From assembly GCF_988242995.1 (NCBI RefSeq), contig NZ_OZ547043.1: a stretch of DNA of 64,000 bases; one strand, given 5' to 3'. Both the position numbers and the translations under genes were made by a program. Below are positions 6,377 through 44,564 of the stretch, piece by piece; the first letter of the stretch is position 1, and every line of letters starts with the position of its first letter. Below the pieces are notes generated by a model. It saw nothing but the letters and a program-made list of their open reading frames with translations. It did not search any database and had not been told where the DNA came from.

Positions 6377-7165
6377 TTATTTCAGTTCGAGTTCGTTCAT
6401 TGCAGCGATGCTGAAACCGCCGTCAACGTGGACCACTTCACCGGAGATACCGGCAGAGAGATCGGAGCACAGGAATGCCGCAGAGTTACCCACATCTTCA
6501 ATGGTAACGGTACGGCGAATCGGGGTAACGGCTTCGCAATGAGCCAGCATTTTGCGGAAGTCTTTGATACCGGAAGCCGCCAGAGTACGGATCGGACCCG
6601 CAGAGATGGCGTTAACACGCACACCTTCCGGACCCATCGCGTTCGCCATATAGCGCACGTTTGCTTCCAGAGACGCTTTTGCCAGACCCATAACGTTGTA
6701 GTTCGGGATAGCGCGCTCAGCGCCAAGGTAGGAAAGGGTCAGCAGGGCAGAACCCGGATTCAGCATGGAGCGGCAAGCTTTTGCCATTGCAACGAAGCTG
6801 TAGGAGCTGATGTCGTGGGCAATTTTGAAGCCTTCACGGGTAACGGCATTAACATAGTCACCATCCAGCTGATCGCCAGGTGCAAAACCAATAGAGTGTA
6901 CGAAACCGTCAAATTTCGGCCAAACTTTCGCCAGTTCAGCGAACATGGTGTCGATGCTGGTATCTTCTGCAACATCGCACTGCAGAACGATGTCAGAACC
7001 CAATTGAGCGGCAAATTCTTCTACGCGGCCTTTCAGTTTGTCGTTCTGGTAGGTGAATGCCAGTTCAGCTCCTTCGCGGTGCATCGCCTGAGCGATACCG
7101 TAGGCGATGGACAGTTTGCTGGCAACACCGGTTACCAGAATGCGCTTACCGGAAAGAAAACCCAT
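6377..7165 (-). CDS. fabI: Enoyl-ACP reductase FabI, 262 aa
   Basis: 262-aa [59 protein letters not shown]... recognised as FabI. Confidence 0.95.
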
Positions 7166-38934: not shown

Positions 38935-38940
38935 GCGCGA

Positions 38941-38973
38941 ATATGCCTGATGGTGCAACACCATCAGGCATAT
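38941..38973. terminator. Bidirectional terminator hairpin between tyrR and tpx
   Basis: ATATGCCTGATGGTG-caa-CACCATCAGGCATAT perfect 15-bp arms between convergent stops. Confidence 0.6.
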
Positions 38974-38977
38974 TAAC

Positions 38978-40568: not shown

Positions 40569-41271
40569 GATGCCAGCGCAGCAAGTTTGCCATCGCAAAG
40601 AGATATTTTTCGCTGGCTTCGTCGGAGGAGATGGGGGGAAACTCTGCGGTGATGCAATGCAGGTTGAGATCCGCACACCAACTACCGAAAGAGCCAGGTG
40701 TTTCATAACCGACGCTGGTTACCAGAGGCAATTCAAACGCCTGGGCCAGCCATTCGCCTAATTCGCTGTGTCTGGGATCTTCAATACAGGCCAGCGGATC
40801 GTGGAATGAGACCACCCAGGCGGGTTGAATGCGGTGTATAAGCTGGCACAGCGCCTGGGTTTCAGGTTCAGAGCCAGGTTTGTCACCTGTCAGCAATACG
40901 ACATCACGTTCTTCAGCGGCGCTGTTCCAGCGATAAACGGTTTCACCTTCCTTCCAGTTCGCCGCCGGAAAGTTTCTGTTTAAATCCACACCATTAGCAT
41001 TGGCCCGTAACCCCAACTGGCAGCCGTCAGGATTCACACACAGCACCACATGATGGCGGCGCAAAGACGGTGTCAAAGTCCGCAGAGCACAGGAGAGCGT
41101 GACGACCGAAGAGTTTTCATCACCGTGAGTGCCAGCCAGAATCAAACCACTTTCGCGGCTGGCTGCAGGGGCCGGAAACCAGATTAACGGCGCGCCCAAT
41201 AATGAACGTCCGTAATGTTCTGTTCCGGGCGGAAATGCGCCGCGTTCGGCGCGTGGGCGAGTTACGGTCAT
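40543..41271 (-). CDS. mpaA: Murein peptide amidase A (gamma-D-Glu-Dap amidase), 242 aa
   Basis: Zinc carboxypeptidase-like; start MTVTRPRAERG; 3' end overlaps ycjG by 26 bp. Confidence 0.88.
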
Positions 41272-41516
41272 GATCGTCTCTGGTTCAGGAAGTATTACAG
41301 GCAGTGTTGTGCAAATTTTGCGGATTATCAAATCCTTTTCTTCAACGCTATGTCATCGATCTTGTATCACCTTTTTGCCGGAAGTTGTTTGCATTTTCAT
41401 TGATGGTCAGATATTAGAATTGTCGTAATGTTATATACATGGCGTATTTTATTCTTACTGGTTCTACACATGTTAATCGCATCTGATTGATCAGTTCACC
41501 TTAATAAGTTTAATAA

Positions 41517-41543
41517 ATCGTACTGCACATAGTACAGTACGAT
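41517..41543 (-). terminator. Candidate terminator of the ymjC-like gene
   Basis: 9-bp perfect stem ATCGTACTG/CAGTACGAT with 9-nt loop, followed on the minus strand by UUAUUAAAC. Confidence 0.4.
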
Positions 41544-41561
41544 GGTAGCTATATAATTGAT

Positions 41562-42200
41562 TTACATGAAGAATGGCTTGTCGCCATCAGTCCCGGGTTG
41601 ATTGATTCCTATATTCTCACCAATGTGTTTCTCAGGTTTATCGATGATATCTGTAATTAATGCTGCGACACTCTTACGTGATACGATCGTACCTTTGAAT
41701 GGTTCATTGCGTGAGGTAAGCTCATAATCAATAATATCTTCATCGGTCAGCCAGGCAGGGCGAAGAATTGTATATTCCAGTCCAGAAGCCTCAATTGCAT
41801 CCGCAGCCCTGCGGAATGGTTTTAGGGGTTCACCAATAACTGCATTATTCCATTCGCCAAATTTTCCTGGAACTTCATCATAAATACCGAGGGAAAGAAC
41901 AAAGATCAGACGTTTAACATCACAGGCTTTCATCGCAGCGATCACTGAATTTGCCTGAATATCTAAATCTTCCCCCGTAAGGTTGGCATACACAACATCC
42001 TGTCCCTGCATGGCCTGCTTCAGTGCTGCATGATTCAGTACATCCCCCATAATAATCTTGCTATTAGTGGGATAGGGTTTGTGGATTTTTGCTGGCTGAC
42101 GGGCAAATAAAGTTTGTTTAATGGTTTGTTTATCTGCCAGTTGATTAATCACATGGCGGGCTATCTGACCGCCAGCACCAAGAATCAGTACATTTTTCAT
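41562..42200 (-). CDS. ymjC: NAD(P)-binding (NmrA/atypical SDR-like) oxidoreductase, 212 aa; intact counterpart of K-12 ymjC
   Basis: Rossmann motif LILGAGGQIA near the N-terminus; full-length ORF between mpaA and ycjY. Confidence 0.65.
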   Translation of the reverse strand: MKNVLILGAGGQIARHVINQLADKQTIKQTLFARQPAKIHKPYPTNSKIIMGDVLNHAALKQAMQGQDVVYANLTGEDLDIQANSVIAAMKACDVKRLIFVLSLGIYDEVPGKFGEWNNAVIGEPLKPFRRAADAIEASGLEYTILRPAWLTDEDIIDYELTSRNEPFKGTIVSRKSVAALITDIIDKPEKHIGENIGINQPGTDGDKPFFM

Positions 42201-42270
42201 GAAACTTTTCCCAGATTATTGGCAGCAATATGCCAGGCCATATCACTATTACGGATTTGAATATGTTTCA

Positions 42271-43191
42271 TTACAGAGTTTCCTCAAAGAACGGAGCTAA
42301 TACTGAAATTGCTTCAGCCACATAGACTTTGCCGTCATAAAGATCCATATGGTTTGCGCCTTCAACAATGTGATAGCGTTTATCCTGGCTTGATGCTCGA
42401 TCGTACAGGTCGTCACTCATCCATTTGCTCCCAGCCTGGCTGCCCGCCACAATCTGTATCGGCTGAGTCAGGTACACTTCCGCCATATGGTAAGCATCAT
42501 AGGTAATAATCTGGTTAAGGCTGCGCAAAGTAGCGTAACCCGGTGCTGTTGGGTACTGCGCGCGAGGGGTGTGGTAATACTCCCAGGCCTGACGCAGTTC
42601 TTCGTTCGGCGCATCGGACTCCTTCATTGGTGCCAGTGGCATAGTGGCGTATTCTCCGCTGCTAATATCGCTGGTTCGGGCGTTTGAACCCGCGTCAACG
42701 TATGGTAGGGCATCAATAGATTTCACATTGTTTTCCCAACCATTACGGAACATCGAACCAATATTGACCGCACTAACAGTACCGATGGCCTTGATGCGGC
42801 GATCCTGAATTGCAGCATTGGCTGTATATCCTGCACCGGCACAAATTCCCATCGCACCAATTCGGCTATTGTCGACATAAGAAAGCGTTGTCAGGTAATC
42901 AATCACGGCACTGACGTCTTCAGTACGAATGTATGGGTTTTCTAACTGACGCGGCTCGCCGCCGCTTTCACCTTGATAAGATGCGTCATAAGCAATAGTG
43001 ACAAATCCCTTTTCCGCCAGTTTTTCGGCATAGGTTCCGGCCGTTTGCTCTTTAACGCCCCCACCTGGGTGAGATACCACAATTGCCGGATACTGACGGG
43101 TTTCATCAAATTTTGGAGGGAAATAGATCACTGCAGACAAAGAGATGGTTGGATTATTGCTGTTAGTGAAGCTGACTTTATTATTCATCAT
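42271..43191 (-). CDS. ycjY: YcjY, alpha/beta hydrolase (dienelactone hydrolase/S9-like), ~306 aa
   Basis: Hydrolase fold with GICAGAG nucleophile elbow; start approximate (ORF extends to 43203). Confidence 0.8.
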   Translation of the reverse strand: MMNNKVSFTNSNNPTISLSAVIYFPPKFDETRQYPAIVVSHPGGGVKEQTAGTYAEKLAEKGFVTIAYDASYQGESGGEPRQLENPYIRTEDVSAVIDYLTTLSYVDNSRIGAMGICAGAGYTANAAIQDRRIKAIGTVSAVNIGSMFRNGWENNVKSIDALPYVDAGSNARTSDISSGEYATMPLAPMKESDAPNEELRQAWEYYHTPRAQYPTAPGYATLRSLNQIITYDAYHMAEVYLTQPIQIVAGSQAGSKWMSDDLYDRASSQDKRYHIVEGANHMDLYDGKVYVAEAISVLAPFFEETL

Positions 43192-43328
43192 TCCGTTCCT
43201 CATGGAGTTGTCGGTTCGTTTTAACGGTTGGTGATATCACTATAGATATTGATCATTAAGTTGATTAGACCCAAAATCATGATTAGACCTATCATTTAAA
43301 TGATTAATAGATTGTATGGAGATACTGA

Positions 43329-44228
43329 ATGAAGCGTGAAGAAATCGCTGATCTGATGGCGTTTGTCGTCGTTGCAGAGGAGCGTAGCTTCACTCGCGCA
43401 GCAGCCCGCCTGAGCATGGCGCAGTCAGCTTTAAGCCAGATAGTGCGCCGTATAGAAGAACGATTGGGATTGCGGCTTCTGACGCGAACCACGCGCAGCG
43501 TTGTACCCACTGAAGCGGGCGAGCATCTTTTGTCTGTTCTTGGCCCTATGTTGCATGACATAGATTCTGCCCTGACATCCCTGAGCGATCTGCAGAACCG
43601 CCCATCCGGGACAATACGTATTACTACTGTAGAACATGCAGCAAAAACGATATTGTTACCAGCTATGCGCACATTCCTGAAATCGCATCCTGAAATTGAT
43701 ATCCAGCTTACCATTGATTATGGTTTGACCGATGTCGTTTCTGAACGTTTTGATGCAGGCGTCCGTCTGGGTGGGGAGATGGATAAAGATATGATCGCCA
43801 TTCGAATCGGGCCAGATATACCAATGGCTATTGTTGGCTCACCGGATTATTTTTCTCGTCGAAGTGCTCCAACGTCAGTGTCACAATTAATAGATCATCA
43901 GGCAATTAATTTGTATCTTCCCACATCGGGTACAGCAAATCGCTGGAGATTAATACGCGGTGGACGTGAAGTTCGTGTTCGCATGGAAGGTCAGCTTTTA
44001 CTGAATACGATAGACCTGATCATTGATGCTGCAATTGATGGGCATGGATTGGCGTATCTACCTTATGATCAGGTTGAGCGGGCTATTAAAGAAAAAAAAC
44101 TGATACGTGTTTTGGATAAATTCACACCAGATTTACCCGGTTATCACCTGTACTATCCACACCGTCGACATGCTGGCTCGGCATTCTCATTATTTATAGA
44201 TAGGCTGAAGTATAAAGGTGCTGTTTAG
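43329..44228 (+). CDS. pgrR: LysR-type regulator PgrR (YcjZ), 299 aa
   Basis: LysR HTH (FTRAAARLSMAQSALSQIVRRIEERLGLRLLTR); divergent from ycjY. Confidence 0.88.
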   Translation: MKREEIADLMAFVVVAEERSFTRAAARLSMAQSALSQIVRRIEERLGLRLLTRTTRSVVPTEAGEHLLSVLGPMLHDIDSALTSLSDLQNRPSGTIRITTVEHAAKTILLPAMRTFLKSHPEIDIQLTIDYGLTDVVSERFDAGVRLGGEMDKDMIAIRIGPDIPMAIVGSPDYFSRRSAPTSVSQLIDHQAINLYLPTSGTANRWRLIRGGREVRVRMEGQLLLNTIDLIIDAAIDGHGLAYLPYDQVERAIKEKKLIRVLDKFTPDLPGYHLYYPHRRHAGSAFSLFIDRLKYKGAV

Positions 44229-44564
44229 CACTACTTGCTGATACATTAATTTAATTCTTCTCTTAACGTATTCTCAGTTCCTTTCAACGTTTTGGTCATT
44301 TTTTATTCTTCGTACAATGGCGACAGATGCTGATTATGATACCGAAAACGGGTTTGAACGTGCGAAGCCCGAACGTAGTGTTCGGAGTTCTATGTGCTTT
44401 ACCGCATTTTGGAGACTATTATTTACACTAAATCTGATTTGATATATTGATACTTAAAACATTTGATGCTTCCTTTGTCACTTTTTTGATGGAAGTTGTT
44501 TGCATTTCTTTAAGGCGAAACAAATAATTACGCATCAATTTTAATGTCGGTTAGAGGGAAACTT

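Follow-up and report, generated by a model that had tools for sequence, protein, structure and literature searches.

An intact ymjC gene in a pgrR-ycjY block between mpaA and mppA of Escherichia coli: a putative BVR-B-like reductase in an eroding operon

Which gene lies between ycjY and mpaA in the genome studied here, and does its position among genes of murein-peptide recycling say anything about its function? The corresponding interval of Escherichia coli K-12 MG1655 contains only ymjC (60 amino acids) and ymjD (21 amino acids). The window, a stretch of 64,000 nucleotides of contig NZ_OZ547043.1 (assembly GCF_988242995.1), carries there an open reading frame of 212 codons, which was analysed together with its neighbourhood in E. 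coli and in other lineages.

The ymjC reading frame and its protein family

The frame begins with ATG, ends at a single stop codon and is transcribed from the same strand as its neighbors mpaA and ycjY (Table 1). The genes tpx and ycjG lie beyond mpaA, while pgrR and mppA follow beyond ycjY. An earlier note on this DNA had described a complete Rossmann-fold frame between ycjY and mpaA, and the coordinates, the GAGGQIA motif and the full-length Pfam match all agree with this. The encoded protein matched the family NAD_binding_10 (PF13460) with an E value of 3e-54 and 184.1 bits (cutoff of 27.2), its residues 8 to 189 covering positions 1 to 184 of the 184 in the model; membership was assigned to proteins scoring above the curated gathering threshold and covering the whole model. 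It is identical to the Shigella flexneri protein of PDB entry 3QVO at 209 of 212 positions, in a gap-free alignment (E value of 2.6e-138), and the gene shows four differences, all synonymous, from that of an "SDR family oxidoreductase" of strain 2012C-4221 (WP_000800177.1). The latter (ECs_1906 in O157 Sakai) and 3QVO represent the same gene at the same position beside mpaA and show no material difference from the protein of the window. The gene is also colinear with loci L002 and L003, and its near identity and its mpaA-proximal position in the pgrR-ycjY block place it in the ymjC orthologous group of E. coli and Shigella.

Table 1. Features of the mpaA-mppA region of the window
Feature	Coordinates	Strand	Description
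mpaA	40543..41271	-	gene flanking ymjC
Left 30-bp direct repeat copy	41367..41396	+	left edge of the insert; sequence native to the mpaA-mppA spacer
Inserted block	41397..44477	.	3081 bp in the window; ~3.97 kb where hydrolase-2 is kept
Spacer and ribosome-binding site (AAGGUG) relic	41485..41516	-	from a downstream adh_short SDR gene, present in L004 and missing in E. coli
Hairpin	41517..41543	-	18 nt past the ymjC stop; 12-bp stem, 3-nt loop
ymjC	41562..42200	-	intact, 212 aa; BVR-B-like atypical SDR of the NAD(P)H-binding Pfam family NAD_binding_10
ymjD-like 24-codon ORF	42197..42271	-	in-frame deletion stub: first ~18 hydrolase-2 codons fused to the last codon
ycjY	42271..43191	-	intact 306-aa alpha/beta (DLH / S15-like) hydrolase; first operon gene; PDB 5XB6, E value of 1.6e-200
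Divergent pgrR/ycjY control region	43192..43328	.	perfect palindromes ATCATTTAAATGAT and AATCATGATT
pgrR (ycjZ)	43329..44228	+	LysR-family regulator, intact, 299 aa
Right 30-bp direct repeat copy	44478..44507	+	right insert boundary, followed by native mppA upstream sequence
mppA	from 44544	+	beyond pgrR

We aligned the protein with 27 orthologs from other genera (Enterobacter, Raoultella, Klebsiella, Citrobacter, Kluyvera, Serratia, Stenotrophomonas, Burkholderia, Halomonas, Delftia, Pseudomonas, and Mesorhizobium). The window protein required no gap in this alignment and retains every one of the family-invariant residues, which occupy 77 columns. Since it aligns without gaps both to 3QVO and to the 27 orthologs, the frame hides no frameshift. 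Alignment with K-12 revealed no intact ymjC there, so that neither of the two findings named in the earlier note as contrary to its reading, an intact K-12 gene or a frameshift here, was obtained. The ORF is a genuine, intact ymjC. Intact alleles are under purifying selection; pN/pS ranged from 0.11 to 0.18 in most comparisons, among intact E. coli alleles and with other genera, with few substitutions to count within E. coli. The existence of an intact ymjC is already known from its RefSeq annotation in thousands of E. coli genomes, from its name in O157 Sakai and from the ortholog structure 3QVO, and the pseudogene status of the K-12 gene is likewise database knowledge.

The dinucleotide-binding motif of Rossmann type, GAGGQIA, occupies residues 8 to 14 of YmjC and fits the pattern GxxGxxG/A; G8, G11, and Q12 are invariant in the 28 sequences. 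A regular-expression search of the 212 residues for YxxxK, the catalytic motif of classical SDRs, gave no match. The invariant R34, located after strand 2, where a basic residue would bind the 2'-phosphate, aligns with the arginine of "GRQ" in a Veillonella homolog, and NADP(H) is predicted as the cofactor on this basis. The model predicted by AF2 (pLDDT of 87.9) matched 3QVO in a Foldseek search, as well as the Veillonella SDRs 3R6D and 4HNH (TM score of 0.87 to 0.88), human biliverdin-IXbeta/flavin reductase, BLVRB (1HDO; TM score of 0.79, E value of 4e-15), and the E. coli anaerobilin reductase ChuY (5FFQ; TM score of 0.82, E value of 3e-11). The nearest solved homolog outside Enterobacterales, the SDR of Veillonella parvula (3R6D, 4HNG, 4HNH, and 4IPT; E value of 1.6e-19, ~30% identity), aligns with YmjC over the whole length, down to the GTxxDKPxF tail at the C terminus; it is a structural-genomics target and adds no functional information. 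BLVRB and ChuY (5FFQ and 5GUY) are, like YmjC, compact single-domain atypical SDRs of ~205 to 215 amino acids with a GxxGQxx motif and no YxxxK. The glycine-rich motif, the lack of YxxxK and a single-domain fold that superposes on these two proteins place YmjC in the BVR-B-like compact class. Both are NADPH-dependent reductases of planar conjugated substrates and serve as our working model for YmjC; they share only 19 to 22% identity with it (sequence E value of ~1e-5), and the likeness considered here is one of fold and motif. Gene context differs too, since the ChuY gene belongs to a heme-utilisation locus while ymjC accompanies two hydrolase genes and a LysR-type regulator gene.

Other family assignments were considered and set aside. 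No NCBIfam equivalog was found for YmjC, every match lying far under its cutoff. The NAD-dependent epimerase/dehydratase family of extended SDRs (PF01370) gave a partial N-terminal match (residues 4 to 117; E value of 1.6e-07) and was rejected, YxxxK being absent as well. The match to NmrA (PF05368; E value of 1.3e-10) aligned residues 2 to 100 with positions 3 to 104 of a model of 298, and membership was rejected because the protein has 212 residues and the C-terminal part of the model is absent. Of the two groups proposed earlier for structural comparison, NmrA-like and atypical SDR proteins, the fold matched the atypical SDRs, and for NmrA the likeness stops at the N-terminal part. The same holds for the redox sensors of the NmrA/HSCARG type and the two-domain NmrA-like reductases, which resemble YmjC in the N-terminal Rossmann half and have a C-terminal part that it lacks. 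It could be argued that YmjC is not an enzyme but an NmrA-like NAD(P)(H) sensor that tunes a regulator, for example PgrR, by redox state: besides the N-terminal Pfam match, 3QVO was deposited as an "NmrA family protein" and the canonical YxxxK is missing. However, the half of NmrA-type proteins that lies beyond this match is absent, the nearest structural relatives of comparable size with a characterised function (BLVRB and ChuY) are enzymes, conservation in YmjC is strongest at residues 97 to 175, outside the N-terminal dinucleotide-binding motif, and in other genomes the gene sits within operons of catalytic genes. We regard a sensor role as improbable and retain that of a reductase.

The block between mpaA and mppA and its relatives in other lineages

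The surroundings of mpaA were annotated by tblastn at 80 loci from other species, one per species. The genes mppA and mpaA are divergent neighbors, 129 to 295 bp apart (typically ~175 bp), at more than 70 of these loci, where pgrR, ycjY, and ymjC are all absent by tblastn. This adjacency was found in E. albertii, E. whittamii and other Escherichia lineages, as well as in Citrobacter, Enterobacter, Lelliottia, Leclercia, Kluyvera, Klebsiella, Kosakonia, Pluralibacter, and Trabulsiella. No ymjC was detected by tblastn at any of the 80 loci, and pgrR-ycjY was present at a single one (L020, from Escherichia sp. E1V33). The window block is flanked by two direct repeat copies (27 of 30 positions identical) with an identical 17-bp core, GGAAGTTGTTTGCATTT. 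The sequence of the empty site, also when taken from an E. coli strain, corresponds to the left flank of the window up to ...GGAAGTTGTTTGCATTT (position 41396) joined to the right flank from CTTTAAGGCGAAAC. The insert has a GC content of 44%, versus 53% toward tpx-mpaA and 46% toward mppA, and the GC3 of ymjC is 0.37 versus 0.52 to 0.55 for tpx, ycjG, mpaA, and mppA. These data show that the pgrR-ycjY-(hydrolase-2)-ymjC block of E. coli is an insertion into a spacer in which mpaA and mppA were ancestrally adjacent.

Two other readings of the repeat core were discarded. Since it lies upstream of both mpaA and mppA, it was considered as a common regulatory site of the two genes, and the empty-site alignment identified it as a direct repeat at the insert boundaries; it was also considered as a sigma-54 promoter, with a GG-to-GC spacing one base under the consensus and a motif directed away from mpaA. 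No remnants of neighboring genes were matched at the right end of the insert, apart from a putative "queH fragment" in the RefSeq annotation of strain MB165, and the left end carries only the relic of a hairpin and ribosome-binding site described below. The same intergenic site is enlarged by ~3 kb in Salmonella enterica subsp. arizonae and subsp. diarizonae, and in subsp. arizonae, the one of the two that was examined, the expansion is a cdtABC-like islet. Such expansions suggest that the mpaA-mppA site is a recurrent landing place for foreign DNA.

A second alpha/beta-hydrolase gene (310 amino acids, hereafter hydrolase-2), whose product is ~40% identical to YcjY, separates ycjY from ymjC in many strains, O157 Sakai among them. 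The neighborhoods of YmjC homologs, checked by tblastn, revealed the same three genes elsewhere. In loci of the Klebsiella/Salmonella type (such as L004), a LysR gene is divergent from genes for YcjY (93% identity), hydrolase-2 (87%), and YmjC (83%), followed by an adh_short SDR and an Old-Yellow-Enzyme (OYE). The Serratia locus has the divergent LysR gene with YcjY (91%), hydrolase-2 (84%), and YmjC (79%). That of Halomonas combines the LysR gene with YcjY (72%), hydrolase-2 (71%), YmjC (68%), an SDR, a flavodoxin-like protein and an OYE, and that of Pseudomonas aeruginosa, which adjoins type-IV secretion genes, with YcjY (70%), hydrolase-2 (72%), YmjC (67%), and a flavodoxin-like protein. 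Stenotrophomonas has a 12-gene operon, with a divergent LysR gene, in which the trio is joined by CMD, SDR, flavodoxin-like, RibD_C, and OYE genes. The order in Burkholderia is hydrolase-2, SDR, YmjC, SDR, OYE, YcjY, and TetR, with no adjacent LysR gene, and Mesorhizobium has a lone YmjC homolog beside a Tn3 transposase. The ycjY/hydrolase-2/ymjC trio is thus passed on together in Gamma- and Betaproteobacteria, and it is usually extended by a classical SDR, an OYE ene-reductase and flavodoxin-like reductases. The pgrR-ycjY control region has a mean identity of 86% between E. coli and the Klebsiella/Salmonella and Serratia cassettes, although the synonymous sites of ymjC are ~70% diverged; regulator, operator and enzymes therefore travel together, in agreement with the location of the SELEX-defined PgrR target in the ycjY/ycjZ spacer (PMC5934670). 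In these close relatives, the regulator and operator region move with the trio.

These comparisons bear on the claim that ymjC belongs to a murein-peptide recycling neighborhood. The adjacency is the product of an insertion, and elsewhere the block occurs without murein-peptide genes: in the other lineages that were examined, none of mpaA, ycjG, and mppA was found within ±6 kb of a ymjC homolog. A conserved association of ymjC with this gene set (mpaA, ycjG, and mppA), by co-occurrence or synteny, was therefore rejected, and the claim is not supported. YmjC might still be a missing enzyme of murein-peptide recycling, acting alongside MpaA, YcjG, and MppA and lost in K-12, since its gene is positioned between mpaA and mppA. 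The block, however, interrupts a once contiguous mpaA-mppA pair, the orthologs of other module lineages adjoin reductase genes and never murein-peptide genes, and the breakdown of the tripeptide (MpaA amidase, YcjG epimerase and a dipeptidase) requires no redox step. The regulon of K-12 PgrR, named a regulator of peptidoglycan recycling, includes ycjY-ymjDC-mpaA and ycjG (PMC5934670), and overexpression of ycjY causes filamentation (PMC3614548); both could reflect a connection with the cell wall. Yet the ycjY/ycjZ spacer listed as a PgrR target by SELEX is the sole site listed at this locus (PMC5934670), which is consistent with control of mpaA by read-through. A role in murein-peptide recycling is very improbable in our assessment.

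Decay of the cassette in E. coli

Strain MB165 has an intact hydrolase-2 gene, and that of O157 Sakai is disrupted by a +1 frameshift. The window lacks 893 bp of the hydrolase-2 gene, and what remains is the ymjD-like stub (Table 1), whose start overlaps the stop of ycjY and whose stop overlaps the ATG of ymjC. The window, which had been proposed to hold the ancestral intact form, thus represents an intermediate state of decay and not the ancestral locus, since the stub is already present. The K-12 genome shares this junction and has undergone a further deletion of 660 bp, equivalent to positions 41402 to 42061 of the window (pairwise BLAST and inspection of the junction), with a microhomology of at most 4 bp. 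It took away the last ~166 codons of ymjC and 160 bp downstream, leaving a YmjC whose first 46 residues are genuine and whose last 14 are out of context. The earlier description of ymjC and ymjD as disrupted remnants in K-12 was correct for ymjC, of which 46 genuine codons are left; ymjD is not a piece of ymjC but the hydrolase-2 stub. The most economical series leads from the complete cassette to the loss of hydrolase-2 (the window) and then to the additional loss of ymjC (K-12). K-12 is the most eroded form of the cassette. Two further E. coli protein clusters (P0041 and P0042), one of 162 amino acids with an N-terminal truncation and one of 171 amino acids with a C-terminal frameshift, look like independent lesions of ymjC.

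The earlier note had also assigned ymjC its own terminator. A hairpin does follow the gene, and the 76-nt stretch around it folds with a minimum free energy of -17.2 kcal/mol (z score of -2.5), but its U-tail is poor (UUAUUAAACUUAUU) and a consensus terminator scan reported no terminator after ymjC. The homologous hairpin of L004 (-23.2 kcal/mol for the folded stretch; z score of -4.0) keeps its pairing by compensatory changes (AUCG/CGAU to CCCG/CGGG) and is intercistronic: beyond it come the same spacer, a ribosome-binding site (AAGGUG) and the start codon (ATG) of the operon's next gene. Positions 41485 to 41526 of the window align with positions 6675 to 6717 of L004 over 43 columns (88% identical) that span part of the hairpin. 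Because its L004 counterpart sits between ymjC and the next gene of the operon, we regard the structure as an inherited intercistronic hairpin rather than a demonstrated dedicated terminator. The hairpin, the spacer and the relic of the ribosome-binding site (41485 to 41543) have been kept in E. coli without the downstream SDR and OYE genes of L004, which none of the examined E. coli loci contains. The K-12 deletion removed the hairpin as well.

A census of 5,426 complete E. coli genomes revealed how these states are distributed. The site is empty, with mpaA adjoining mppA, in 174 genomes, and the cassette is complete (at least 80% of the hydrolase-2 segment present) in ~1,272. At least 80% of the ymjC region is present in 2,895, about half of the sample, a count that may include regions with small frameshifts. 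Subtracting the complete cassettes from these leaves ~1,623 genomes of the window type, which have the ymjC region without the hydrolase-2 segment. The K-12 deletion junction was found in 2,294 (42%), and ~63 have other arrangements. E. coli can clearly do without the cassette, and ymjC itself is dispensable because it has been lost recurrently, through the K-12-type deletion in 42% of the genomes and through the P0041 and P0042 truncations.

Such erosion raises the question of whether ymjC in the window is an intact-looking leftover of a pathway broken by the loss of hydrolase-2, with no selected function. The deletion stub is there, its junction is common to K-12, where ymjC was later deleted (2,294 of 5,426 genomes), further truncations arose independently, and the SDR and OYE genes are gone from the E. 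coli loci. Against this, ~1,623 genomes keep the window configuration with a full-length ymjC region, the intact alleles have a pN/pS of ~0.1 (from few substitutions), and no family-invariant residue has been lost. On balance, we find a mere leftover rather unlikely, but a reading to be taken seriously for this particular strain.

Putative function of YmjC and consequences for PgrR

No enzymology or biochemical data on YmjC, YcjY, or hydrolase-2 were found in the literature searched. A pan-genome study linked "ymjC" to lactic-acid resistance, the gene scored there being either the intact one or the K-12 fragment (PMC9602453). By their profile matches, YcjY and hydrolase-2 are DLH/S15/PETase-like alpha/beta hydrolases, and the best NCBIfam match of both, far below its cutoff, is a family of alpha/beta-fold acyl-homoserine-lactonases. 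Most likely, YmjC would be an NADPH-dependent reductase in a small-molecule pathway of hydrolases and reductases. We consider it somewhat probable that ymjC is a BVR-B-like NADP(H) reductase gene, the last of an acquired and eroding operon controlled by pgrR, whose product transfers hydride to a small electrophile in a pathway unrelated to peptidoglycan. The horizontally acquired operon comprises ycjY, hydrolase-2 and ymjC, transcribed divergently from its own LysR regulator gene, pgrR. The hydride of NADPH would be passed by YmjC to an electrophile that is small and conjugated, such as a quinone, an unsaturated lactone or an ester-derived carbonyl, and this step may precede or follow those of the two esterase/lactonase-like hydrolases. 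The whole could constitute a LysR-controlled pathway of detoxification or catabolism without relation to peptidoglycan. We infer the class of substrate and the order of the reactions from the fold and the gene neighborhood: a conjugated electrophile is suggested by the fold shared with BLVRB and ChuY, by the DLH-like hydrolases and by the company of ene-reductases, carbonyl reductases and flavodoxin-like quinone reductases.

In the window strain ymjC is probably still expressed, from a transcript that it would share with ycjY and with its translation coupled by way of the ymjD stub. A strain of the window type has YmjC without one of its two partner hydrolases, and the remaining pathway may be non-functional now that hydrolase-2 is gone. 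More tentatively, and with real doubt, we suggest that PgrR, YcjY, hydrolase-2, and YmjC form a self-contained mobile pathway for a lactone, an ester or a quinone-like compound, and that the published role of K-12 PgrR as a regulator of peptidoglycan recycling is largely a by-product of the landing site and of the 660-bp deletion. If this is true, the K-12 deletion, by removing the hairpin together with the 3' portion of ymjC, lets PgrR-controlled transcription from the ycjY promoter enter mpaA, and the control of mpaA by PgrR would be much weaker in strains with a complete or a window-type cassette.

The intact ymjC is in itself of little importance and quite ordinary, as it is routinely annotated and a crystal structure exists for the Shigella ortholog. 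What the locus adds is a modest refinement, namely, a cassette of foreign origin between mpaA and mppA, a decay series of four states and a three-enzyme module with its regulator, which do not amount to a new kind of system. The conserved YcjY/hydrolase-2/YmjC trio, for which two structures have been solved and the regulator is known, offers a tractable target for the study of three orphan enzymes. Because the present adjacency to mpaA and mppA results from an insertion, a cell-wall function should not be attributed to ymjC by guilt-by-association. There is also a possible consequence for the reading of PgrR and mpaA data from K-12: since this strain carries the most degraded allele of the locus, work on its PgrR, YcjY, and mpaA may not transfer to the approximately half of E. 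coli genomes that have a full-length ymjC region.

Boundaries of the insert and the mppA-mpaA spacer

The pgrR-ycjY-ymjC insert is flanked by two copies of a 30-bp direct repeat sharing an identical core of 17 bp (GGAAGTTGTTTGCATTT), and no integrase or transposase was found at this repeat-bracketed insert. In Salmonella enterica subsp. arizonae (locus L038), the mppA-mpaA intergenic site holds an islet of about 3 kb that encodes a CdtB-like DNase (275 aa) with a lipoprotein ORF on either side and looks like cdtABC. Because this islet occupies the same site as the E. coli block, the mppA-mpaA spacer is apparently a place of repeated insertion. A gap similar to that of the arizonae locus was seen at this site in another locus, L040. 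E. coli MB165 (L017) carries a putative queH fragment between pgrR and mppA, close to the right end of the insert; RefSeq annotates these 93 bp as internal to the gene for epoxyqueuosine reductase (QueH).

Coordinates of features in the window and in the comparison loci
Feature	Locus	Coordinates	Remark
30-bp direct repeat, two copies	window	41367-41396; 44478-44507	27/30 identical
Putative queH fragment	L017	5505-5597	
Its equivalent	window	~44326-44418	by offset from L017
35-bp near-palindrome	window	38940-38974	tyrR-tpx spacer
Extra mpaA stretch	window	41272-41331	
pgrR/ycjY control region	window	43192-43328	divergent
Arizonae islet	L038	5449-7677	
Hydrolase-2, O157 Sakai	L002	3390-4320	ECs_1907
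P. aeruginosa cassette	L014	7352-12639	
Region of the solitary ymjC homolog, Mesorhizobium	L016	2045-5768	
CBASS-like genes	L004/L005	9068-10978	
CBASS-like genes	L006	8988-10936	

Among the neighboring genes, mpaA begins at a TTG (41331, 262 aa) in the mechanical ORF list, while the K-12, Sakai, and RefSeq annotations all put the start at the equivalent of the ATG at 41271, which gives 242 aa. The near-palindrome lying immediately 3' of tpx matched itself in reverse orientation in all the E. coli loci compared and is probably a bidirectional terminator.

Lesions and control region of the E. coli cassette

Two large clusters of E. coli proteins consist of truncated YmjC variants: one of 162 aa lacking the N-terminal Rossmann motif (P0041, 332 member sequences) and one of 171 aa with a frameshift after residue ~159 (P0042, 388 member sequences). 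Therefore, ymjC has been inactivated several times. The +1 frameshift of hydrolase-2 in O157 strains (893 bp versus 892 bp elsewhere) is a further independent lesion of the cassette. The pgrR/ycjY control region showed 86% identity with the Klebsiella/Salmonella and Serratia cassettes, and within it two perfectly palindromic sequences, ATCATTTAAATGAT and AATCATGATT, are candidate operators for PgrR.

Defense genes and mobile elements near the cassette in other lineages

The Klebsiella/Salmonella form of the cassette is followed directly by CBASS-like defense genes, whose content varied between strains (AGS_C with a weak guanylate-cyclase match and PycTM in L004/L005 versus SMODS/AGS_C and SLATT_6 in L006). 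The P. aeruginosa cassette adjoins genes for type IV secretion (TrbI, CagX, VirB8, and TrbL), and the ymjC homolog of Mesorhizobium adjoins a Tn3 transposase and a resolvase, suggesting that both are carried by mobile elements.
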